Virus record (IMG/VR): IMGVR_UViG_3300042321_002027
DNA from: a virus
DNA length: 64,000 nucleotides
Reading direction: 5' to 3' (one strand)
The notes under the pieces are model-generated. The model was not told the origin of the DNA. It saw only the letters and a program-made list of their open reading frames with translations, and searched no databases. The position numbers were made by a program, and so were the translations under genes. The stretch's first letter is position 1, and every line of letters begins with the position of its first letter. Below, piece by piece: positions 7,292 through 64,000 of this stretch.

Positions 7292-9678
7292 TAGATTTTT
7301 GGTAATGTAATCTTATTTGTGTTTGCTGGATCAAGAGACTTACCAGAATGTTTTTCAACGAATGCCTTAGTCATAGATTCCTTATGAGCTGGCTTTTCTG
7401 TACCGTGGAAAGCCTTATAGAAATCATTAGCAGCCTTTTGTGGTGCAGAGAATTCCATAGTTTTTGGTGTTGATACAGTTTTGCCATCAACCTTTGATGT
7501 TGTATAACCAGTGATGTGTTTTAGTTTGTAGTTGCCTTTGCCGTCAGAAAGACCAAGCTTTTCAGCATTTCTGATTTGATCAACAACGTGTGTTACACCA
7601 CCAGTTGTACCGCTACCAGAACCATGCTTAGAACCAGACTTACTGCCCTTTGGACGACCACGACCACGCCTTGCTTCTTCTTCAGCAATAGCTTCGTCAG
7701 TCAATGTTCCTGATCTGCTAGCTGTAGAACCAAAAGCATTTGGTGAATAATCATCTGGAGTTGGAGCAACTGGACCTTCAAGGATAGCAGCCATGTGTGC
7801 TAGTTCTGCTTCAGAAAATTCAACTTCTTCTTTAAACCTGTCATACGCCTGATTTGCTACTTGTTGATTCTTTTTGGCATTTTTTACATCACCATCATCA
7901 GCCGCTTTCATTAGACGGTCCACAGCTCTTTTCTGAACTTTGCCAAGAAGTTTCTGACCTTTCTTGCCCTGATAGCCTTTAAGTTCATCAATCTGTTCAA
8001 CTTCTTCCTGTACTGTCATAAAGTGAGTAACGTGAGCTTTACCACCCTTCATATGAATAGAGTGAACCTGACTCTCAATTCCGTCGTTGTGTGTAACGAA
8101 GTGCTTACCATCCTGCTTATCAAATGTAACAGTACCCTTGCCCCACATTTTCTTTACGTGATTGGCAATTGCCTTCTTGTGCTCAGCTGGTAAACCACCA
8201 GCAGCTTCGTCGATGTATTCAACTTCTTCGTTCTTCAATGCGATAGAGCTTTTTCCAGTATTCTGATATACCTTTGATTCTGGTTTCTTATAACCAGCAA
8301 CAGCATCAGCAACCTTGGCAATTCCTTGACCATAAGCAGCGCCAACTCCCTTGGCAATCGCCTCAACGCTTCTTAATCCGCCTGCACGATTTGCTGCATC
8401 TTTTGCAGAGTCAATCATGCTGCGCTGACGAGATCCTGGCTCACCAATTTCTTTATTTGTTTCGCGCTCACGTTCCATTGATTTTGCTACATCAGCAGGA
8501 AGATCGCCCTTTGGTGATGGTCCTTCTTCCTTTTCTTTCTTTGGTTTTGCATAAGAAGGAGCTTTAATTCTCATTGAAGAAGGAGAAGTTACATCTTCCT
8601 TCATTGCATCAGCAATTTTCTTACGACGATTGTGTAGGTAGCTATCGGTTTTATCCTTGTCGCCATCGTTGTCGATGTCTTCATCTTCCTTGCCAACTGG
8701 ATCAAGTTTCTTTGCTTTCTTAGCTGCTTCGAAAATGTTTGATGTGTTTAGTGATTGAAGCTTCATGAAGGCTTCGATAAGCTTATTTGACATTTCTGTT
8801 GACTCCATTCTGTCTCTATTGTAGTTTAAACGACGTTTTAATTCTTCTTCTCTTTTAGCTCTTTCGACAGCATCAGGATTTGTCATAAGTGTAAATCCTG
8901 TTTTACCTCCTGAAAAATTTGGAGCAGCTGGTTTAACACTGCTGCTGCCAGCTACACTGCTGCTGCCAGGTTCTCTTGCCATTATTCTAGAAGTTGTTCG
9001 GTCATTCAAAGCTTTTGCACCAATAGGATTTTCTCTTCTCATTTTATTAAAGCCTTCTTGGCGTTTCATATGAGATAAAGTTTGATCGCCTACGATGCCA
9101 TCAACTTTTAAATTATATTTTTTTTGATAATCCATAACAGCTTTTCTGGTGTTATCACCATATTGTTTGTCTGCTTTGATTCCAAGTTGTCTTTGAACAT
9201 ATGAAACTTGATCGCCGCTTGAACCAACTCTTAGATTGCTAGTAGAAGTTCCAACTTTCATCTGTGGTGTAGAAGTGTCGAACTTTTTATACTGAGACTC
9301 ATAATTAGAAGCGGCAGTTGTCGGATTTTGATTAGCCTTATACATGTCACCAGCTGCAGCTGCTTGTGTTACAATAGGCTGAGTCATCTGCGAAGAACCA
9401 GAAGTTGCTGCTGCTGGCGCGCTTGCTGCAGGAGGAGCTGCTGATTGTTTATATCTATCAACTCCAAGGTTTGCAAAATTTGAACCTGTTTTAGTCAAAT
9501 CTGCCATTGATTTTTGTACACTTAATCCAGTTGCATCATATCCGGTGCCGCTAGCATTAACACGTTCGCCGCTAATTGGCATAGGACCTTGTTGTTTAAT
9601 TGGAGTTACTCTTCTAGTTAAATCTTCATGCAACTTCAAAAATGATTCAATTAGTGGATTTTTAGTTTCTTTGCTCAT
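7291..9678 (-). CDS. Large probable internal head protein with peptidoglycan-binding domain
   Basis: LRVGSSGDQVSYVQRQLGIKAD...YGDNTRKAVMDYQKKYNLKVDGIVGDQT (PG_binding_1-like); repeated EEVExIDE motifs. Confidence 0.7.
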   Translation of the reverse strand: MSKETKNPLIESFLKLHEDLTRRVTPIKQQGPMPISGERVNASGTGYDATGLSVQKSMADLTKTGSNFANLGVDRYKQSAAPPAASAPAAATSGSSQMTQPIVTQAAAAGDMYKANQNPTTAASNYESQYKKFDTSTPQMKVGTSTSNLRVGSSGDQVSYVQRQLGIKADKQYGDNTRKAVMDYQKKYNLKVDGIVGDQTLSHMKRQEGFNKMRRENPIGAKALNDRTTSRIMAREPGSSSVAGSSSVKPAAPNFSGGKTGFTLMTNPDAVERAKREEELKRRLNYNRDRMESTEMSNKLIEAFMKLQSLNTSNIFEAAKKAKKLDPVGKEDEDIDNDGDKDKTDSYLHNRRKKIADAMKEDVTSPSSMRIKAPSYAKPKKEKEEGPSPKGDLPADVAKSMERERETNKEIGEPGSRQRSMIDSAKDAANRAGGLRSVEAIAKGVGAAYGQGIAKVADAVAGYKKPESKVYQNTGKSSIALKNEEVEYIDEAAGGLPAEHKKAIANHVKKMWGKGTVTFDKQDGKHFVTHNDGIESQVHSIHMKGGKAHVTHFMTVQEEVEQIDELKGYQGKKGQKLLGKVQKRAVDRLMKAADDGDVKNAKKNQQVANQAYDRFKEEVEFSEAELAHMAAILEGPVAPTPDDYSPNAFGSTASRSGTLTDEAIAEEEARRGRGRPKGSKSGSKHGSGSGTTGGVTHVVDQIRNAEKLGLSDGKGNYKLKHITGYTTSKVDGKTVSTPKTMEFSAPQKAANDFYKAFHGTEKPAHKESMTKAFVEKHSGKSLDPANTNKITLPKI

Positions 9679-50410: not shown

Positions 50411-50563
50411 ATGAAGTTGATCAAATTAGAAGAGTTTATTATAGCTGATACCGGAGTAAAGGTCACGATTCTTGTTGACATTGCTACAATGGGTAAAGCA
50501 TACGCTGAGGCTCATCTGAAATGGCCAAAGATATTATCGTTGAAGGAATACGAAAAACACTGA
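50411..50563 (+). CDS. Possible 50-aa ORF ending inside the tmRNA acceptor piece
   Basis: MKLIKLEEFIIADTGVKVTILVDIATMGKAYAEAHLKWPKILSLKEYEKH; no clear RBS. Confidence 0.35.
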   Translation: MKLIKLEEFIIADTGVKVTILVDIATMGKAYAEAHLKWPKILSLKEYEKH

Positions 50564-50833
50564 GGACTGGGGGGCAGTACCCCACGCCTCCACCAAAGAC
50601 ACACTACCTAATAATAGCGGCGTACCCGTGGGGTTATTAGGAGTCTTGCAAGCTGGTGTGTCTTTGATGGGGGCGAACTAGGATCGACTGAGTGTAGAAT
50701 AGTTGACTGGAGATAATCGTAGGCGACTACGTACAAGCGCAAAACTCTAAATGCAAACGATAACTTTGCACCTCGTTTGGCACTAGCTGCCTAACATGAG
50801 TCCGGTGGGTACTTGGAAACAGAAACCCACCAC
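50533..50833 (+). ncRNA. ssrA: Two-piece (circularly permuted) tmRNA
   Basis: Acceptor piece ends TGGGG-GGCAGTA-CCCCA-CGCCTCC-ACCA (50595); intervening stem; coding piece starts GGGGGCG (50669) giving G3.U70; tag ANDNFAPRLALAA* at 50753-50794. Confidence 0.92.
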
Positions 50834-50842
50834 CAATTTCGC

Positions 50843-50871
50843 TTGACATTAAATCGGTGTCAGGGTACAAT
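50843..50871 (+). promoter_or_regulatory. Early-type promoter for the tRNA-like gene
   Basis: TTGACA-ttaaatcggtgtcaggg-TACAAT. Confidence 0.75.
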
Positions 50872-50880
50872 GAATAATAA

Positions 50881-50963
50881 GGCCACGTAACCGAGGACGG
50901 CTTCTACCCGTTTACACGTAACTGGAGTTGCAAATGGGGGTTCGAATCCCTCCGTGGTCGCCA
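50881..50963 (+). tRNA. Atypical tRNA, anticodon UCU, no D stem, long variable arm
   Basis: GGCCACG/CGTGGTC-G-CCA; GACGG-CTTCTAC-CCGTT; GGGGG-TTCGAAT-CCCTC. Confidence 0.7.
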
Positions 50964-51556: not shown

Positions 51557-51648
51557 GGGCGTGGGTGTTGGTACACAAGAGCGGCTTATACTCGCTTTAG
51601 CACTAGATCGGTGTTCTCGACAGGGTTCGAATCCTTGCACGCCTACCA
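51557..51648 (+). tRNA. Atypical tRNA, anticodon UAU, minimal D arm, long variable arm
   Basis: GGGCGTG/CACGCCT-A-CCA; GTGT-TGGT-ACAC; AGCGG-CTTATAC-TCGCT; CAGGG-TTCGAAT-CCTTG. Confidence 0.75.
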
Positions 51649-56375: not shown

Positions 56376-57089
56376 TCAGCGCCAAGTAAAAAAATCGTTT
56401 AACGAATTCAATTCGATTTTTCTATCATTGCCTAATTTGTTCTTATAGTTTATGACGTAGTTAATTTTCGGTGTGCTCAACAAGAAATCATGAACTTTTT
56501 CGAAAACTTTGACGTTTAAGCTCTCAACAAACTCTGAAATATCTTTTTTTGAGAAATTTTTAGTCTCATAAACCTCATCACCATCGTAAATTTTGTCGAT
56601 ACATCTTAAAATCAACTCAAAAAGGTGATCTTTTTCTAATTTTAAAAATTCTTCATCAGAATATAGTGATGCAGGAGGGTATTTTAGGATTAAACCCGCT
56701 GTTTCGTTGATTTTGATGATATTTTCGGTTTTTTTAGGGAAAGTTACTTGAATTTCTTCTAAATTTACATCAAAATCATAAACATTTTTGTCTTCATTAT
56801 CTTTTAATGATATTTTGATGATGCTATCTACAGAAAACGACCTTAATTTCAAGAAAATATACTCTAAATCAAAAATCGCAATTGAGTCGACGTCAAATTT
56901 CTTGTCTAAACAACAATTTTGAACAATTTGTTTGATTACTACAAGAATATCAGAGTCGTTTTTGCTTTCTTTCGCCATAAAAAGAAGCTTTTCTTCTTTT
57001 ACAAGAAATGGCCTGAACATAAATTCCTTTTTTAAGGAAGGAACTTTGATATTAAGTATTGGATAATCTATTTTTGGCAAAGATGACAT
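56376..57089 (-). CDS. gp26-like baseplate hub subunit
   Basis: LPKI...FRPFLVKEEKLL...FDLEYIFLKLRSFSV...LNDFF. Confidence 0.88.
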   Translation of the reverse strand: MSSLPKIDYPILNIKVPSLKKEFMFRPFLVKEEKLLFMAKESKNDSDILVVIKQIVQNCCLDKKFDVDSIAIFDLEYIFLKLRSFSVDSIIKISLKDNEDKNVYDFDVNLEEIQVTFPKKTENIIKINETAGLILKYPPASLYSDEEFLKLEKDHLFELILRCIDKIYDGDEVYETKNFSKKDISEFVESLNVKVFEKVHDFLLSTPKINYVINYKNKLGNDRKIELNSLNDFFTWR

Positions 57090-57104
57090 TATTTACTCCA
57101 TATT

Positions 57105-57797
57105 TTAAGCTGTTATCACTCCAGTAGAAGTGGTGATCGAGACACGGTCAGTAGAAGGTGTTGTTGCGTTAGAATTTATGTTACTTCCTACGATTGAATA
57201 GCTAGAGTACGTTACAGTTATGGCTATACGCATAAGATTAACATTGTCGTTCCAAGCTAACTGAATTTCTCTCATAGAAGAAGGGTATGCTTCATAAAGA
57301 TTTATAGTTTTTACTGTTTCTCCAACATCATTATAAATCACTATCATCATATTTGTTGAATATTCGTCTTTATACTCAATGGTATAATTTGGTATTCTAC
57401 CACCGTTGAAAATATTATCTCCATTTGGTTCTTGGCCATTAAAATTGAAGATACCGTTTATCCAATTGTACCAAAAGTCCCAAAGATCAGTATTTCTGTC
57501 TAGTAGGATAGAAAATGTGGTGTCGAAATATTGAGCATTGTACGGCATCTTTTGTGTTGGGCCAATGCCGTATCTGTTAGTGTCGATTGATAACAAAGAT
57601 GCGCTAGGAGTGCGAACTTGGTCTATTCTGAACCTTAAAAGATTGTTTATATCTTTTATGCTCGTTTCTCTATCATTTATTTTCATGTATTTGTTTTGCA
57701 AAAATTTAGGCGCTTGAACGAACACTTCAAATTTGTTATTTTTGATGTATCCAAAGAAATCTAAATTTTGTTTGAAGCTATTTACGTTAAAAGGCAT
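57105..57797 (-). CDS. gp54/gp19-like tail tube (initiator) protein
   Basis: YGIGPTQKMPY, YKDEYST, LYEAYPSSM..IQLAW. Confidence 0.7.
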   Translation of the reverse strand: MPFNVNSFKQNLDFFGYIKNNKFEVFVQAPKFLQNKYMKINDRETSIKDINNLLRFRIDQVRTPSASLLSIDTNRYGIGPTQKMPYNAQYFDTTFSILLDRNTDLWDFWYNWINGIFNFNGQEPNGDNIFNGGRIPNYTIEYKDEYSTNMMIVIYNDVGETVKTINLYEAYPSSMREIQLAWNDNVNLMRIAITVTYSSYSIVGSNINSNATTPSTDRVSITTSTGVITA

Positions 57798-57805
57798 TTC
57801 TTTTC

Positions 57806-58387
57806 CTAGTATGGAGGTTTTCTTGCGTATTTTCTGTTAGGATTGATTTGCCATCTTTGTAAAGGAAGCAAAACAGCTTTGTCCCAATCGTAAGGCGAAA
57901 CTTGATGAAAACTGCTTCTTACATGAGCAAACAAATATCTTTTTATGCAATTTTCGAACCCGTTAAACTGAATAGAGTGAGCTTTCAACACATTATATGA
58001 AATTGCCAATTTGGTAGAGTTATCATATTTATCATTGTTCGCTAGATCTTTTAAATTTGTTAAAAGTTTAGCTCTGGCTAATGGTGGAAGATAGTGTAAG
58101 TTGATACCCAAGAAACCGTCAGAATAGAACTCTATAGGGAAAACTAAAGGATATGCATCGTAATAAGGTAATATGTTTTTGTACTTTGGATCGTAAGCAA
58201 ACATGTACATTTGGCCGATTTCAGGAAATGCATCTTTAGTAAAAACATTATTTTGGTTTCTGGATAGTTTTTTAGATACATCCGAAGCTTTGTCTTTGAA
58301 CCAATCAATAGCGGTTTTCGCACTGCTGGCTAGCTCTTTTCCGGTGTTTTTTAGTAATTGGAAAAATTCATCGTCTTGACCAGCCAT
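57806..58387 (-). CDS. gp2: gp2-like DNA end protector
   Basis: MYMFAYDPKYKNILPYYDAYPL, GINLHYLPP, CIKRYLFAHVRS. Confidence 0.92.
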   Translation of the reverse strand: MAGQDDEFFQLLKNTGKELASSAKTAIDWFKDKASDVSKKLSRNQNNVFTKDAFPEIGQMYMFAYDPKYKNILPYYDAYPLVFPIEFYSDGFLGINLHYLPPLARAKLLTNLKDLANNDKYDNSTKLAISYNVLKAHSIQFNGFENCIKRYLFAHVRSSFHQVSPYDWDKAVLLPLQRWQINPNRKYARKPPY

Positions 58388-58827
58388 TATTTAATCCCTA
58401 ATTCTTTCTCTGTGAAAATATGGAAAGTCCAGCCTCTGTCTTTACAAAATTCATAGGCGGCTTTCCATTTAGCTTCATTCGTTCCCCAAGTTTTTACCTC
58501 GGTCAAAAACGTTTTTTGTTTTTTGCCTTTGGTGTTTTTTGGTGGAATAGTTTGTACATAAGGTTTTACTTCTATCAAAATAGTTTCTTTCTTACCATCA
58601 CTATTTATTTTTGTAACGATAAAGTCCGGAAAGTATCTGTGTATTTTTCCATCTATAGGAGATCTGTATGGTATTATTATTTCTTCAGATCCCCAACTCA
58701 AAATATCCTTTCTAGAATCTAAATAAAGCATGAGTTTGAGTTCCCAACCCGAACGATATACAATATTTGTTGGGTCGCCTTTGTATTTTTGTGGATTTTT
58801 AGGTTTAAAGAGTCCTTGTATCGGCAT
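58387..58827 (-). CDS. gp4: gp4-like head completion nuclease
   Basis: FKPKNPQKYKGDPTNIVYRSGWE, HRYFPDF, IEVKP, NEAKW; start ATG 58827. Confidence 0.92.
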   Translation of the reverse strand: MPIQGLFKPKNPQKYKGDPTNIVYRSGWELKLMLYLDSRKDILSWGSEEIIIPYRSPIDGKIHRYFPDFIVTKINSDGKKETILIEVKPYVQTIPPKNTKGKKQKTFLTEVKTWGTNEAKWKAAYEFCKDRGWTFHIFTEKELGIK

Positions 58828-58835
58828 AAAAAACG

Positions 58836-58866
58836 TAATAAATAATAACAACAAGTTATTTATGTA
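58836..58866. promoter_or_regulatory. Pair of oppositely oriented T4-type late promoters between gp4 and gp48-like genes
   Basis: TAATAAATA on plus and CATAAATA on minus. Confidence 0.55.
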
Positions 58867-58882
58867 GCATAAGATAAAGAGA

Positions 58883-59614
58883 ATGCCATTTCCATCAACC
58901 ACTTCAAATATCCCAAATTTCCCTAAACCATTAGACAGAAATGAAAATTCTGGTCCTTTGGTTTTTCCAAACGATTTGACAAACAGCACTGGTAGAAATT
59001 TCTACACACAAATACAATTCGTTCAATATTCTATATTCCAACAAATAAATTTTATGGGTTCGTATGCATTGCCATCCGGCGGTATGAAGCTTCCTATACC
59101 TTCTAAAGTAAACGACAACTTAATTTTACATTGGAGCCCAGTTTCTTTAACCGAATCTGTGTTAGGTGCAGCGGGTTCTTTTGGTAAAGGCGCTGGTCTT
59201 GTAGCACAATTAGGCGGTGCTGCGGTTCCTGGAGGACTTGCACTTAATCCATTGATGTTTTTGCTTTTCCAAAGACCTGAATACAGACAATTTTCGCTAA
59301 GTTGGTTGTTAACTCCAAGAAACGAAAAAGAATCTAACACAATTAAGAACATAGTTACTAAGTGCAAGAGGGCTGCTTCTCCTGACAGATTTGGTCCGTT
59401 TCTTATGACATATCCACAAGTAGCTCTAATTAAGATGTATCCAAATGATATTTTCGGGCAAATGATATTTAAACCTTGTATTATAACATCTGTTCAAGTT
59501 AATTACACAAATGCTCCAACTCCAGCTTTCCATAAAAATGGAGCTCCTGCAGCAGTTGCATTAACATTGAATCTGATGGAAATGCAGTTCTGGTTCAGAA
59601 ACGAGATAACCTAA
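58883..59614 (+). CDS. gp48-like baseplate tail-tube cap
   Basis: NP...LFQRPEYRQFSLSWLLTPRNEKES..I; CIITSVQVNY. Confidence 0.8.
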   Translation: MPFPSTTSNIPNFPKPLDRNENSGPLVFPNDLTNSTGRNFYTQIQFVQYSIFQQINFMGSYALPSGGMKLPIPSKVNDNLILHWSPVSLTESVLGAAGSFGKGAGLVAQLGGAAVPGGLALNPLMFLLFQRPEYRQFSLSWLLTPRNEKESNTIKNIVTKCKRAASPDRFGPFLMTYPQVALIKMYPNDIFGQMIFKPCIITSVQVNYTNAPTPAFHKNGAPAAVALTLNLMEMQFWFRNEIT

Positions 59615-60492
59615 TGACAGACAGATATTTCGATAAGTTTCCTTTAATAACTTACGCTAACAACACTATCGTAGATATTACCAGAAAAGTTACCCTTTTG
59701 GACAAAGTCTCTAGTAACCCATATGCATTTTACCCGTTTGAGATAACAAATTACGAAAGACCAGACCAGCTTTGTAATCGATACTACAACGATTCGTACA
59801 AAACTTGGTTGATATATTTGGCTAACAACATTAAAGATCCGTATTATGAATGGTATTTGTCAGAAGACGAGCTAAATGAGTTCGTAGAGTTAAAATACGG
59901 TTCTTTTTATAAAGCACAAACTAAGATAAAATTTTACAGGAATGATTGGGAAAATAAAGAACCGATATCAAAGAGCGAATACAACGCATTAACTCCTGGT
60001 CAGAAAAAATATTGGAATCCAAATTATGGTATGGGTTCTTCGGTAATTGACTATTCTAGAAAAGAAATAGACTGGTCATCAACAACCAACAAGATAATTT
60101 CTTATGCTGTAAGTAATACAAACTTTATTACAGACGAGTTATGTAACATTCGTTTACAAGGCGAGTATATTGGTAAAGGTCAAATAGTAGCTACTACCAA
60201 CACGAATATATATCTACAGCATGTGTACGGCTCTTTCTTTACCAGTGATGTAATAACTTTAAGCGGCAATAGCTATATCTTTGGAACAGAAAGCAATTGT
60301 AATGCAGTTGTAACTGCAGTTTCTTCATCGGCTAATAATATAGCAGAAGAAGAATTAGTTTATTGGAAACCAATCACTTACTATGACTATGAAGTAGAAA
60401 GAAACGAATACAACAAGTCAATAAGAGTTATTGACAGCAACCAAGCATCTGTAGCAGTAGATAATTTGAGAGTTCTTTTGGAGACTGAATAA
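59614..60492 (+). CDS. gp53-like baseplate wedge protein
   Basis: YFDKFPLITY, ERPDQL...YY...WLIYLANNIKDPYYEW, YDYEVERNE. Confidence 0.85.
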   Translation: MTDRYFDKFPLITYANNTIVDITRKVTLLDKVSSNPYAFYPFEITNYERPDQLCNRYYNDSYKTWLIYLANNIKDPYYEWYLSEDELNEFVELKYGSFYKAQTKIKFYRNDWENKEPISKSEYNALTPGQKKYWNPNYGMGSSVIDYSRKEIDWSSTTNKIISYAVSNTNFITDELCNIRLQGEYIGKGQIVATTNTNIYLQHVYGSFFTSDVITLSGNSYIFGTESNCNAVVTAVSSSANNIAEEELVYWKPITYYDYEVERNEYNKSIRVIDSNQASVAVDNLRVLLETE

Positions 60493-61736
60493 TGGCTATT
60501 GGAGATATTAAATTTTCTGAATTGAAAATTGGTGGTGTTGATTTAAATGATCCTAATCAAGCTTATCCAGACGAAATAAACATATATGAAGACATTTTAA
60601 ATTCTTATGGTCCAGCTATAGAAATAAGAGTTATTGATCCAACAGATGCCTTCGGTAAAAACAACATTAATGGATCTTACGATCAAGACATAATCATTTC
60701 ATTTTCTGATGATATGGGTAAAACTGTAAGGTTTAAATTCAAACAGCTTGAAAATTCAAATTTGACAGACGAAGCTCAATTTAAGCAAGGTTCTTTGCAT
60801 GCTAAAAGTTCCACTGTAAAAGGTGTAAGTCCAGAACTATTAAACGCTCAAGGACATTATGTACAAAAAAGCTGGGAAGATAAAACAACCAATATTGCTA
60901 GAGACATATTGAAAGACAATTATAAAACAGACAAGCAAATTGAAATTGATGACGATTCTAAAGAAAAAAGAAGATGGATTGCCTCTAACGAGCATCCACT
61001 AAAACAGTTACAAAAGTTAAACGAAGAACACGTGGCAACGCAAAGCCAATCTTCAACTTATGTTATATTTCCAAAACAAGAAAAAGGCAATTCAAAATAT
61101 AAAATAACTACTTACGAAAAGTTATTCCAACAAAGCCCAGTAGCAACGATAAAACAATCAACAGTTCTTGATACCTCTGCCTCTACTGAAGAAGATAAAA
61201 GAAATTCTATAATGTGGATGAACGTCGGCGAGTCTTTTTATAGTGGTTCTAGACATCTAACAAAATCTTCAGAACAAACTACAAATCTTTTTACACATAA
61301 GATCGTACAAACAGACTCTATACAAACTAAATTTGTTTTACCAGGTAAAGAAGTATATCAAGGGCAAACATCAAATCATAATGTTGTTCCGCAAAGAAAA
61401 ATATATAGTAAACTAAATGAACCAAAAGAACAAAGAATAACACCAGCTGACGCTAAAACAAAAAGGGCTGAATTTCTTTCTCATTTGGCACAAAATTCAG
61501 CTGAATTAGAAATACCAGGAAATCCAGATATAACTTTAGGTTCAATGATAACTTTGCAAATACCCAAAAAAGTAGATGCAGGATTAGGCGGTGGTAATGA
61601 AATGCAATTCAATGATAAAGTTTTAGTAGTAGGTGTTAGACACAGAATAAAACCAGCAGGTAAAACACCTAGATATACTCAAGTGTTAAAAGTTGTGAAA
61701 GCATCTTTTTCTCAAGGCGGTGGAGGCAGTGCTTAA
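60492..61736 (+). CDS. gp27-like baseplate hub protein
   Basis: NIYEDI, IPGNPDITLGSMI...LVVGVRH; position between gp53 and gp5. Confidence 0.65.
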   Translation: MAIGDIKFSELKIGGVDLNDPNQAYPDEINIYEDILNSYGPAIEIRVIDPTDAFGKNNINGSYDQDIIISFSDDMGKTVRFKFKQLENSNLTDEAQFKQGSLHAKSSTVKGVSPELLNAQGHYVQKSWEDKTTNIARDILKDNYKTDKQIEIDDDSKEKRRWIASNEHPLKQLQKLNEEHVATQSQSSTYVIFPKQEKGNSKYKITTYEKLFQQSPVATIKQSTVLDTSASTEEDKRNSIMWMNVGESFYSGSRHLTKSSEQTTNLFTHKIVQTDSIQTKFVLPGKEVYQGQTSNHNVVPQRKIYSKLNEPKEQRITPADAKTKRAEFLSHLAQNSAELEIPGNPDITLGSMITLQIPKKVDAGLGGGNEMQFNDKVLVVGVRHRIKPAGKTPRYTQVLKVVKASFSQGGGGSA

Positions 61737-62125
61737 TGGCTAAGTTTTTAATTGCAGAAGTAAGACAAGGACCACATAAAGATCCTAGCAACTCAGGTCA
61801 TTGTCAAATACGTATCTACAATAGACAAAATGATGAACAAAATATTAAAGACGAACATTTGAAGTGGGCATGCCCACTTCACCCAATAACATCTGCTGCA
61901 ACTGCAGGAGTAGGTATTATACCTGCAGGTATGATTCCAGGTTCTAGAGTTTTGATAACTTATTTGGATGATGATGAAGGCGAACAATATCCAATAATTC
62001 TTGGTACTTTGGGAAGAGGCGAGTTGCCAGATGAAGATGGTATAGGAAAAAGATCAGATACACAAACGGCTGGTAAAATTGATAATTCTAAACCAAATGA
62101 TAATCCAGTCACAGTAAAGGTTTGA
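61736..62125 (+). CDS. gp5 N-terminal OB-fold-like protein
   Basis: DP...G.CQIRI...LKWA.P..P.TSA...G.G...GSRV...D...QYPIILGTL. Confidence 0.75.
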   Translation: MAKFLIAEVRQGPHKDPSNSGHCQIRIYNRQNDEQNIKDEHLKWACPLHPITSAATAGVGIIPAGMIPGSRVLITYLDDDEGEQYPIILGTLGRGELPDEDGIGKRSDTQTAGKIDNSKPNDNPVTVKV

Positions 62126-62129
62126 AATA

Positions 62130-63440
62130 ATGGCTATTTACAATAATTTAACACAATTAGATGCTGGAAAATCATTTAATTTTTCTATAAATAAAAAAGT
62201 CAGAATTGAAGATTATCCTCCATATGCAACACCTCCTAAACCAAAGGAAGATGGCAAGCAAAATTATGAAGGTAATGCAGTTCCTAATGCACCAAACAGA
62301 GACAAGCCAACAACTGCGGACGCTAAAAAAGGATTAAAAGATTTACCAGCTGCTATGGCTGCAGTAGACCCTAAAGGTTTGTCATCTATAGCCCCGAAGA
62401 TGTATCAGATGTTAGGACAAATTGCTGCTGCCGCTGGTGGTGCATCTGAATCTACTCGAAAACAAACTGTCGAGGATGCTTTGTCTGGTGCGTTAGCTAT
62501 ATTGTCTAACAAGTATACATTTGAATATCTGACTCTAGTTTTCAACAATGCGCTGCAAAATGACGGTGTCAAGCTCATAGACAAAGGTTATCAATCTGTT
62601 GTTAAAAACGCATTGGCAAACCTCTACAAAAATTATTTGACCTATGGTGAGGGAAATATTCCAGAAACAACTTATGAGACAGTAACAACGATTGGAGATG
62701 CACCATCACCAATAGTAACTGATGTTCCAGATTTATACGTTCAGCAATATTATACAAAAGAAAACGATCCGTATCCTGGTTATACTGAATGGATTTCTCA
62801 AGATGGTTCTGATATTGTTTTTACAGAAAGAACAATAGGCGATCCATATTATACTTCTTCTAGCGAAGAGGTTTATTCTGATGCTGAAAAAAAGTTGGCC
62901 ATAGCTTTAGAGCCTTTTGTGATAGAAAATAATTTGACTGCTCCAGAATTAAATGATCTTTTGTTGAGTCAAGAATCCCAAATAGAAAATAATACTGCTG
63001 AAAAAACAGGTGGCAAAAACTCTTCAAAGCAATTAATGAGCGTATTGATGCAATTAGCAGGATATGCTGGAAAAATAGCTAACTTGCAACAATCTCTTCA
63101 ATTGCCTATTTCTGTGTTAAACCAAGGTGGTATTAAAAAATCTCATGAATCTTTCATGAAAAACATTGGTCAATTAAGACAAGCAAAAGATAAGGCAAGA
63201 GAAGCAGCAAAACCTTTATCTGCTGCAGCAGGTTTACTTTCTTCCGTAGGAGCTTTATCAGGGGCGGTTGGTGCTGTTTCTGGAGCTGTTGGTGCAGTAT
63301 CAGGTGCAGTAGGGGCTGTTTCCGGAGCTGTTGGTGCTGTAAGCTCTATTTCTTCTGTCTCTAGTGCAGTTTCCGCTGCACAAACTGTTGTAAAATCAAC
63401 AGAACACGTGAAATCTTTATATAACACTATTACGAGTTAA
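62130..63440 (+). CDS. Baseplate-region hypothetical protein
   Basis: 436-aa ORF with C-terminal SGAVGAV repeats. Confidence 0.7.
   Translation: MAIYNNLTQLDAGKSFNFSINKKVRIEDYPPYATPPKPKEDGKQNYEGNAVPNAPNRDKPTTADAKKGLKDLPAAMAAVDPKGLSSIAPKMYQMLGQIAAAAGGASESTRKQTVEDALSGALAILSNKYTFEYLTLVFNNALQNDGVKLIDKGYQSVVKNALANLYKNYLTYGEGNIPETTYETVTTIGDAPSPIVTDVPDLYVQQYYTKENDPYPGYTEWISQDGSDIVFTERTIGDPYYTSSSEEVYSDAEKKLAIALEPFVIENNLTAPELNDLLLSQESQIENNTAEKTGGKNSSKQLMSVLMQLAGYAGKIANLQQSLQLPISVLNQGGIKKSHESFMKNIGQLRQAKDKAREAAKPLSAAAGLLSSVGALSGAVGAVSGAVGAVSGAVGAVSGAVGAVSSISSVSSAVSAAQTVVKSTEHVKSLYNTITS
63246..63342 (+). repeat. 21-nt coding tandem repeat (SGAVGAV, about 4 copies)
   Basis: Visible in the translation; synonymous divergence between copies. 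Confidence 0.8.
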
Positions 63441-63443
63441 AAT

Positions 63444-64000
63444 ATGGTAGATACTAACAAAAAATTACCTAAGCACGGTTGGGATGATGAAATTGTTCCA
63501 GAACAAGGTTGGGTTACTGGCGAACAAGACATCCTCGGCAGCAAAAACTTCAAATATGCTAATCCTGACAAACCAGAGGATTTTAGCACACAGAAGGTTT
63601 CTGCTACAGGCTCTTATGGAACTACGCAATACGATAAAAACAAAAAAGAAATCGTAACAAACTTATGCGTTGGAGAAATTCGAGGATATACAGCAGGTGG
63701 TTGTTCTTCACAAACAGATGGCCATAAAGACACTAGTGTAGATTCTACTTATCGTGAAAATTGTACAGGAGACAAAGGTGTTTCGAGCAAATCAAGCTTT
63801 GAAGCCGCTACAAACAGTAAATATTCTTCAATATCAGGTTCTTATTATACATTTACAGTCGGACCAAGATCAGAGTCTAAAACGTTTAATGGTACAGACG
63901 GAGACGTTGCAGAAGAATTTTCCGGACATCGCCATTCTGCATACGAAAAAGATAAGGTAGAAGCAGTCAAAGGTAACAAAGTTACCATGATTGAGGAAGG
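63444..64000 (+). CDS. gp5 C-terminal beta-helix-like protein, runs off right edge
   Basis: MVDTNKKLPKHGWDDE...; G..H...E.D....V.G periodicity. Confidence 0.55.
   Translation, partial: MVDTNKKLPKHGWDDEIVPEQGWVTGEQDILGSKNFKYANPDKPEDFSTQKVSATGSYGTTQYDKNKKEIVTNLCVGEIRGYTAGGCSSQTDGHKDTSVDSTYRENCTGDKGVSSKSSFEAATNSKYSSISGSYYTFTVGPRSESKTFNGTDGDVAEEFSGHRHSAYEKDKVEAVKGNKVTMIEE

Follow-up and report, generated by a model that had tools for sequence, protein, structure and literature searches.

A conserved family of five-arm phage tRNAs with an invariant UAU anticodon, most likely isoleucine tRNAs for AUA codons

Introduction

To our knowledge, AUA is unique among sense codons in that its reading in bacteria requires a dedicated base modification, the formation of lysidine by TilS. 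The cellular tRNAs that read AUA carry a CAU anticodon that is converted to its lysidine form, and TilS is needed for this. Closest in function to the phage tRNA described here is the tRNA-Ile2(UAU) of Mycoplasma mobile (PMC3575796); both have a UAU anticodon that reads AUA, or in the phage case is predicted to read it, without lysidine. The two have problems in common, namely the recognition of U34 by isoleucyl-tRNA synthetase (IleRS) and the misreading of AUG; the E. coli IleRS charges a UAU tRNA poorly, and on E. coli ribosomes such a tRNA also reads AUG in error (PMC3575796). In M. mobile both IleRS (Arg865) and the ribosome are adapted to a tRNA that is itself a plain type I cloverleaf (PMC3575796). 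The phage tRNA would have to use the unadapted enzymes of its host, and differs further in the tetraloop of its D arm, its anticodon stem of 7 bp and an additional hairpin displaying GAU. The identity set of tRNA-Ile consists of A73 and the anticodon, with G16, D20, D21, C4:G69 and C29:G41 as further determinants in E. coli (PMC9976931).

Other kinds of tRNA resemble the phage tRNA in parts of its structure. The allo-tRNAs of Acidobacteria, encoded near toxin-antitoxin genes, have 8/4 or 9/3 acceptor/T stems and G73 or U73 (serine identity); UAU is their commonest anticodon, and the UAU allo-tRNAs were inactive in translation tests (PMC5389517). Like the phage tRNA, they combine a D tetraloop with a lengthened anticodon stem and a long extra arm; the phage tRNA differs in its 7/5 stems supported by covariation, in A73 and in its location in phage tRNA arrays. 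The tRNA-Pyl and the mammalian mitochondrial tRNA-Ser(UCN) share the single linker base, the small D loop and the long anticodon stem, but have a 6-bp stem and a 3-nt variable loop (PMC7609411) where the phage tRNA has a 7-bp stem and a 17-nt hairpin followed by 5 nt. The class II tRNA-Leu(UAA) of the same phages also has a long extra arm, A73 and G1:U72, and is unlike the UAU tRNA in its full D loop, its 5-bp anticodon stem, the one or two bases after its extra arm and the lack of a GAU loop. Phage tRNA(UAU) genes of canonical length have the identical anticodon, presumably do the same job and also lie on phage contigs, but are without the extra arm. The tRNA-Ile of phage T4, with a CAU anticodon and a canonical fold in its database record, is likewise unlike the phage UAU tRNA. 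Our search of the literature found no published description of a five-arm UAU tRNA, and the plan was not found in the reviews of non-canonical tRNAs that were consulted.

Results

The UAU tRNA gene and its surroundings

The gene lies in a 64,000-nt stretch of viral DNA (the window), a segment of a T4-like myovirus encoding a DNA polymerase, UvsX, a DnaB-like helicase, and gp33-, gp59- and gp32-like proteins. ARAGORN called its 92 nt as tRNA-Ile(tat), while the Rfam tRNA model RF00005 gave no match at E<=10 over the same interval and its gathering score was not reached. Every structural detail given in the preliminary description was present in the sequence (Table 1): the one linker nucleotide, GTGT-TGGT-ACAC, an anticodon stem of 7 bp, the variable hairpin AGCAC/GTGTT and A73. 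The minimum-free-energy fold is the described cloverleaf. The folding energy is, however, ordinary for the composition (single-sequence z = -1.48), and one sequence alone is therefore no proof of the structure; the proof comes from its relatives.

Table 1. Features of the UAU tRNA gene and of the small-RNA stretch in which it lies
Feature	Position in window	Strand	Details
tmRNA	50477-50834	+	permuted, two-piece, alpha-type, phage-encoded; tag ANDNFAPRLALAA
Sigma-70-like promoter	50843..50871	+	TTGACA-17-TACAAT, 11/12, by consensus scan only; upstream of the small-RNA/small-ORF stretch with the UAU tRNA
UCU RNA	50881-50963	+	tRNA-like, anticodon UCU; Rfam tRNA 31.6 bits
UAU tRNA	51557-51648	+	GGGCGUG G GUGU-UGGU-ACAC A AGAGCGG-CUUAUAC-UCGCUUU AGCAC-UAGAUCG-GUGUU CUCGA CAGGG-UUCGAAU-CCUUG CACGCCU A CCA
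Acceptor stem, 5' strand	51557..51563	+	GGGCGUG; pairs with 51638-51644; G1 opposite U72
Linker between acceptor and D stems	51564	+	single purine where two bases are usual; A in 37/55, G in 17/55 distinct copies
D arm	51565..51576	+	4-bp stem GUGU/ACAC; tetraloop UGGU containing G18 G19
Arm H1 (decoding arm)	51578..51598	+	7-bp stem; 7-nt loop CUUAUAC; anticodon UAU 51587-51589; U33, A37
Arm H2 ('variable' hairpin)	51599..51615	+	5-bp stem AGCAC/GUGUU; loop UAGAUCG; GAU at 51606-51608, loop positions 3-5
Connector	51616..51620	+	CUCGA, consensus C-U-n-G-A; five bases, canonical variable-loop length
T arm	51621..51637	+	CAGGG UUCGAAU CCUUG; 4/5 pairs compensatory
Acceptor stem, 3' strand, with A73 and CCA	51638..51648	+	CACGCCU; A73 at 51645; encoded CCA at 51646-51648

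The near-consensus promoter upstream of this stretch ends 10 nt before the UCU RNA, and no terminator-like site was found between it and the UAU tRNA; it may drive the UAU tRNA. The tmRNA of the window is ~70% identical to the SsrA of Methylophilales phage Melnitz, and similar tmRNAs adjoin the UAU tRNA on four other contigs (L005, L006, L009 and L014).

The UCU RNA had been thought to share the architecture of the UAU tRNA, and this likeness did not survive the comparison. The UCU RNA is without a D arm and reached 26.9 bits on the UAU-family covariance model described below, like any ordinary tRNA, and we rejected it as a member of the UAU family. The hairpin GUAAC-UGGA-GUUGC in its variable region has a D-loop-like UGG tetraloop. 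An identical UCU RNA is found on contig L003, and a canonical 77-nt tRNA-Arg(UCU) occupies its place on L005, L009, L010 and L014. The GC-rich hosts of the preliminary description likewise find no support; the window is about 40% GC.

A family defined by covariation

A pattern comprising the D arm and the anticodon loop matched 14 viral contigs, each with a 92-nt tRNA(tat). When 15 copies were aligned with plain MAFFT, all 28 of 28 pairs were 100% paired, 13 of them with compensatory changes, and none of 500 shuffles was as good. A covariance model was built from these first 15 copies and further sequence patterns then added members, for a total of at least 153 long UAU tRNAs from viral contigs. 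Family members scored 72-113 bits on the model, and ordinary tRNAs of the same contigs did not exceed 36. Across 99 copies (55 of them distinct), 99.1% of cells were paired and changes on both sides were seen in 20 of the 28 pairs; this alignment was fitted to the covariance model, which favours the structure, and the MAFFT test on 15 copies agreed with it. As a control, the partners were slid by one to three columns, which lowered pairing to 42-48%.

Covariation among the 55 distinct copies was present in all five helices, with the D stem and H2 included. Six of the seven acceptor pairs change on both sides, and the first pair is G:U in 45 copies, A:U in 5 and C:G in 2. The outer G:C and U:A pairs of the D stem are invariant and its two inner pairs covary (UA/AU/CG and GC/CG). 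All seven pairs of the H1 stem are kept, five of them with compensatory change, as is the case for three of the five pairs in H2. The D loop has four bases across the family, UGGU, UGGA or GGGU, with G18 G19 retained. In the connector, G and A are invariant, and 54 of 55 copies have the C and likewise the U; most retrieval patterns imposed C and U, whereas G and A were imposed by one pattern only and left open by the one from which most rows came. A73 is found in 54/55 copies and U72 in 51/55, and CCA is encoded in nearly all.

These genes thus have the features of a tRNA, a 7-bp acceptor stem, D, anticodon and T arms, a discriminator base and CCA, kept by covariation. We conclude that the window gene is a member of a real, conserved class of phage tRNA with a five-arm plan. 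The proposal of a distinct class of phage tRNAs is borne out by the number of copies and by the five covarying helices, and the lack of structural homologues, which would have counted against it, is contradicted by what the covariance model and the patterns retrieved. The class II resemblance is partial: there is a long variable arm, in the form of a covarying 5-bp hairpin, but the D loop is a tetraloop rather than a full loop carrying the core bases on which LeuRS, SerRS or TyrRS rely.

Three other assignments were rejected. In an 8/4 allo-tRNA fold, base 8 would have to pair with the last T-stem base, which it cannot do (G-G, A-C); covariation moreover supports the fifth T-stem pair (GC 31, CG 18, UA 6). 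The bacterial tRNA-Sec has 8/5 acceptor/T stems, a 6-bp D stem and a UCA anticodon, as compared to the 7/5 split, 4-bp D stem and UAU of the family. Nor is H2 an intron, for which splicing of the extra arm had been raised as a counter-argument: it is a 17-nt hairpin in the variable region rather than in the anticodon loop, it covaries, and it is kept in all copies.

The geometry of the molecule suggests how the parts may fit together. With a four-base D loop, the stacking layers 8:14 and 15:48 would be impossible, and the two extra pairs of H1 would replace them. The stack from anticodon to elbow would then stay near the usual twelve layers, by analogy with the 6-bp D stem of tRNA-Sec. Base triples in such a compact core might be formed by the invariant outer D-stem pairs and the connector C-U-n-G-A.

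A subgroup of 91-nt members, missed by ARAGORN, was found on four contigs (L163:2114-2204, L175:5806-5896, L183:5667-5757 and L207:1756-1846). These have a three-base D loop, UAG, without GG, and a T loop, AGCGUAA, without the UUC motif. Because both loops are altered, the partners at the elbow have changed together.

Distribution of the family

The contigs that carry the family are phage-like and up to 367 kb in length. Often the UAU tRNA gene is separated by only 4-10 nt from a canonical tRNA. Many contigs have arrays of 20-39 tRNAs, in which a canonical tRNA-Ile(GAU) occurs together with one to three CAU tRNAs and with class II tRNAs for leucine, serine and tyrosine of the normal kind. Two cultured phages are carriers: Sinorhizobium phage Phosso, with an annotated tRNA-Ile(tat) of 93 nt, and Synechococcus phage S-SRM01, in which the tRNA copy is unannotated. 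A BLAST search of isolate phages with the window copy gave no match. In Phosso and S-SRM01, an HNH endonuclease gene lies directly downstream of the UAU tRNA (L208:3314-3856 and L209:3136-3555), and this may be a homing endonuclease that aids the spread of the tRNA region.

A scan of one genome per species for 185,579 prokaryote species returned only two true members; the scan used the exact motif, which divergent cellular copies would escape. Each is part of a tRNA array on a short contig (5 kb in one case, 14 kb in the other), most simply explained as binned phage DNA. On a 14-kb contig catalogued with a gammaproteobacterial assembly, tRNA-Arg(UCU) and the UAU tRNA occur twice as an inverted pair (L215:6202-6415 and 7656-7869), which is either a true inverted duplication or an assembly artefact.

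The anticodon of the decoding arm

The invariance of the anticodon was assessed with three patterns that left it free: the clade A D arm with CT-NNN-AC, the clade B D arm with CT-NNN-AC, and H2 with the T arm and no constraint on the anticodon arm. UAU was present in every true member that they returned. The third pattern contributed 44 new distinct sequences, all of them UAU, with the H1 loops CUUAUAA (31), UUUAUAA (9), CUUAUAG (2), UUUAUAC (1) and CUUAUAU (1). U33 and A37 are present in all members, and the H1 loop, Y-U-U-A-U-A-N, has the seven bases of a tRNA anticodon loop. Position 38 is free to vary and is mostly A when unconstrained; the apparent invariance of C38 in the 55-sequence alignment was discarded as a product of search patterns that fixed it.

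The family has some of the known identity elements of tRNA-Ile and lacks others. In addition to the near-invariant A73, A35 and U36 are invariant. G34 or lysidine-34 is missing from the decoding loop, where H1 has U34, and G-A-U occurs in H2 only. The D-loop determinants of the E. coli IleRS (G16, D20 and D21) are absent from the family, whose D loop is only 4 nt. Of the minor stem determinants, C4:G69 is replaced by A:U in clade B, and C29:G41 is likewise not conserved, position 29:41 being variable. The suggestion that the tRNA bypasses TilS agrees with established decoding rules, under which an anticodon with U34 would by itself make the decoding of AUA independent of TilS.

The preliminary description had also called UAU tRNAs rare, which is true of bacteria (PMC8007984) but not of phages. 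Canonical-length tRNA(UAU) genes are common in viral contigs (at least 83 genes, at least 68 of them distinct); they are 73-81 nt long, with a short variable loop and no GAU hairpin. The hairpin plan is therefore not obligatory for a phage UAU tRNA. A large group of canonical-length tRNA(UAU) genes (L262, L266, L272, L274, L276, L284, L286, L309, L313, L336 and L338) have an odd 5' half, GGGGCG-nAAGGUAAGCCGGUUGCAUCC, with a D region unlike that of standard tRNA-Ile.

The amino acid at ATA codons and the demand for it

We reasoned that the amino acid inserted at ATA should be reflected in the way this codon evolves in the phages. ORFs from the family loci were compared all-against-all by BLASTP, and the alignments were mapped back to codons. 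Between pairs of 85-100% identity, ATA was exchanged with ATT 637 times, ATC 267, GTA 102, ACA 56, GTT 54, ATG 44 and TTA 19; TTA and CTA were among its rarest partners. These counts include related sequences many times and are not independent, but the trend is a strong one. At 30-85% identity, ATA was aligned with isoleucine in 34%, valine in 19% and leucine in 15% of cases, and the profile of ATC was similar (I 40%, V 22%, L 13%), as compared to 51-55% leucine and 8-11% isoleucine for Leu codons. ATA is an Ile codon in these phage genomes, by this comparison of coding sequences. Since it swaps with ATT and ATC and not with Leu codons, decoding as isoleucine is the best reading and a general decoder that inserts leucine is unlikely. 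The UAU tRNA most likely carries isoleucine, for which codon evolution is indirect evidence and not proof.

ATA accounts for 24% of the Ile codons in the window (14.3 per 1000). The preliminary description proposed that ATA usage be compared between late and early genes. In the genes for DNA polymerase, UvsX and helicase, which lie in the replication region at 20-26 kb, ATA is 3-8% of Ile codons, as compared to 45-58% in the AT-rich tail-gene region at 57-63 kb (57000-63500; 33-36% GC). This gradient fits a phage tRNA that helps the late AT-rich genes, although base composition alone could give it.

Possible descent from tRNA-Leu

In clade B, the larger of the two groups, the acceptor stem is closest to that of the same phage's tRNA-Leu (a mean of 8.3/15 matches, and 6.9 or less for other isotypes). 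The match to tRNA-Leu reaches 13/15 on contig L128, and the acceptor of the S-SRM01 copy is identical to that of a tRNA-Leu(UAA) in L215. In clade A, which includes the window, the acceptor is not Leu-like; here it is the D stem, GUGU/ACAC, that aligns with its counterpart in the phage tRNA-Leu(UAA), the loop showing a gap of 4-5 nt. Comparison of the T arms gave no signal of ancestry. The anticodons UAA and UAU differ by one base. From these likenesses, we take it as a reasonable lead that the family may descend from a class II tRNA-Leu(UAA) whose D-loop bases for LeuRS were lost.

The same observations could be read as evidence that LeuRS still charges the tRNA, a class II tRNA-Leu(UAA) descendant by one anticodon change, so that leucine would be placed at AUA and the codon would be ambiguous or recoded during infection. 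Besides the Leu-like clade B acceptors and the clade A D stem, A73 together with a long extra arm would suit such a tRNA, and tRNA-Leu(UAA) is among the best non-member matches of the covariance model. The E. coli LeuRS, however, needs A14, A15:U48 and the setting of G18G19, and these elements of the D loop and core are deleted in the family. Furthermore, the exchanges of ATA are those of an Ile codon and only rarely involve TTA or CTA, the clade A acceptor is not Leu-like, and the invariant GAU would be left unexplained. Charging by LeuRS is, in our judgement, very unlikely.

Leu-anticodon tRNAs (UAA, CAA and UAG) of only 73-78 nt, without a long variable arm, are numerous among the phage contigs (L209:3661-3733, L007:2252-2327, L012:214-289, L131:10379-10455 and others). 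Bacterial tRNA-Leu normally has a long variable arm.

The extra hairpin H2

H2, with its 5-bp stem and 7-nt loop, is followed by five bases and the T arm, which is how an anticodon arm and a variable loop of standard length are laid out. Most copies have CAGAUUA as the H2 loop. All 55/55 distinct sequences have GAU, which is also the anticodon of the major bacterial tRNA-Ile, at loop positions 3-5, the anticodon positions; the preliminary description does not mention this triplet. The A-G-A-U of the loop is also (near-)invariant in copies retrieved without any constraint on H2, some of which have very different H2 stems (CCUC/GAGG, GCGC/GCGC) with GAU still present. Position 33 of the loop is A and position 37 is usually U; because the loop is without the U-turn base U33 and the purine 37 of decoding loops, H2 should not decode. 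The possibility that H2 is a copied tRNA-Ile(GAU) arm was rejected: when compared with real tRNA-Ile(GAU) anticodon arms beyond the triplet, this match ranked first but was weak, with a mean of only 4.9/14.

What the hairpin does can be approached from the side of charging. Isoleucine identity lies in A73 and the anticodon, the E. coli IleRS charges UAU tRNAs poorly, and AUG is misread on E. coli ribosomes; together these provide a motive for the display of GAU. Identity could then be split from decoding, such that the UAU arm decodes while the non-decoding GAU arm is held by the unadapted host IleRS, which could charge a TilS-independent AUA reader that would have originated as a rebuilt class II tRNA-Leu(UAA). 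We put this forward tentatively and think it unlikely as a whole. Its central element, that H2 presents IleRS with an anticodon familiar to it, is our leading guess for the hairpin but similarly unlikely, since canonical-length UAU tRNAs are common, the variable side usually faces solvent in class I synthetases, the conserved block is AGAU(U) and the likeness to tRNA-Ile is weak.

Alternatively, the tRNA would decode AUA as isoleucine and H2 would be unrelated to IleRS, serving as a structural brace for a core poor in D-loop bases, or as a handle for a modification enzyme, a processing nuclease or a phage protein, with GAU kept for that purpose. The conserved block A-G-A-U(-U) is wider than a triplet, the invariance of the outer D-stem pairs and of the connector C-U-n-G-A fits tertiary contacts, and type I phage UAU tRNAs manage without the hairpin. 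Class I synthetases usually bind a tRNA with its variable region facing solvent, and under this textbook rule the enzyme would be in a poor position to read a hairpin at that site as an anticodon. There is nevertheless a precedent in the archaeal class Ia LeuRS, which reads the tip of a long variable arm. Inspection of the alignment revealed no complementary partner for the H2 loop within the tRNA, and an arm of 5 bp and 7 nt with GAU exactly at positions 3-5, tied only to a UAU tRNA, would be a pointed coincidence if it had no connection with IleRS. A brace or a handle of another kind is possible, if somewhat improbable.

Discussion

We consider it probable that the gene encodes a working phage tRNA that reads the Ile codon AUA through its UAU anticodon independently of TilS, and that is most likely charged by IleRS. 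The UAU tRNA would be co-transcribed with other phage genes or tRNAs and processed as they are. The predicted product is a cloverleaf with five arms, its D loop down to four bases, its anticodon stem two pairs longer and a second hairpin at the site of the long variable arm. The host IleRS would attach isoleucine to it, and UAU, as an unmodified-type anticodon, would read AUA with no need for the host TilS. In this way the tRNA may supply AUA decoding for AT-rich genes, which in the T4-like phage of the window would mainly be the tail genes.

A tRNA-shaped RNA could also act without decoding, as a decoy for a host defence that cleaves tRNA-Ile or as some other regulatory mimic. We know of no defence aimed at tRNA-Ile. 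The display of two Ile-type anticodon loops and the failure of the Rfam tRNA model to detect the family would both accord with mimicry, as would the inactivity of the Acidobacteria allo-tRNA(UAU) in translation tests (PMC5389517). However, selection has preserved the acceptor stem, A73, CCA, the T loop, G18G19, U33 and A37, and in phage tRNA sets that are nearly complete it is this gene that takes the place for AUA. The 7-bp stem, too, looks tuned to the geometry of the ribosome. A decoy is therefore highly improbable in our view, and we favour the AUA-reading isoleucine tRNA.

The Rfam tRNA model misses the family, and its genes may thus go uncounted in phage annotation, as the unannotated copy in S-SRM01 illustrates. 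If the predicted decoding is correct, a large group of phages carries a ready-made reader of AUA that skips the lysidine step. If, in addition, the GAU hairpin is a handle for the synthetase, these tRNAs would be a natural instance of tRNA identity supplied from outside the anticodon arm, with direct use in the engineering of orthogonal or codon-reassigned tRNAs. The cultured pairs Phosso/Sinorhizobium and S-SRM01/Synechococcus make the handle idea testable.
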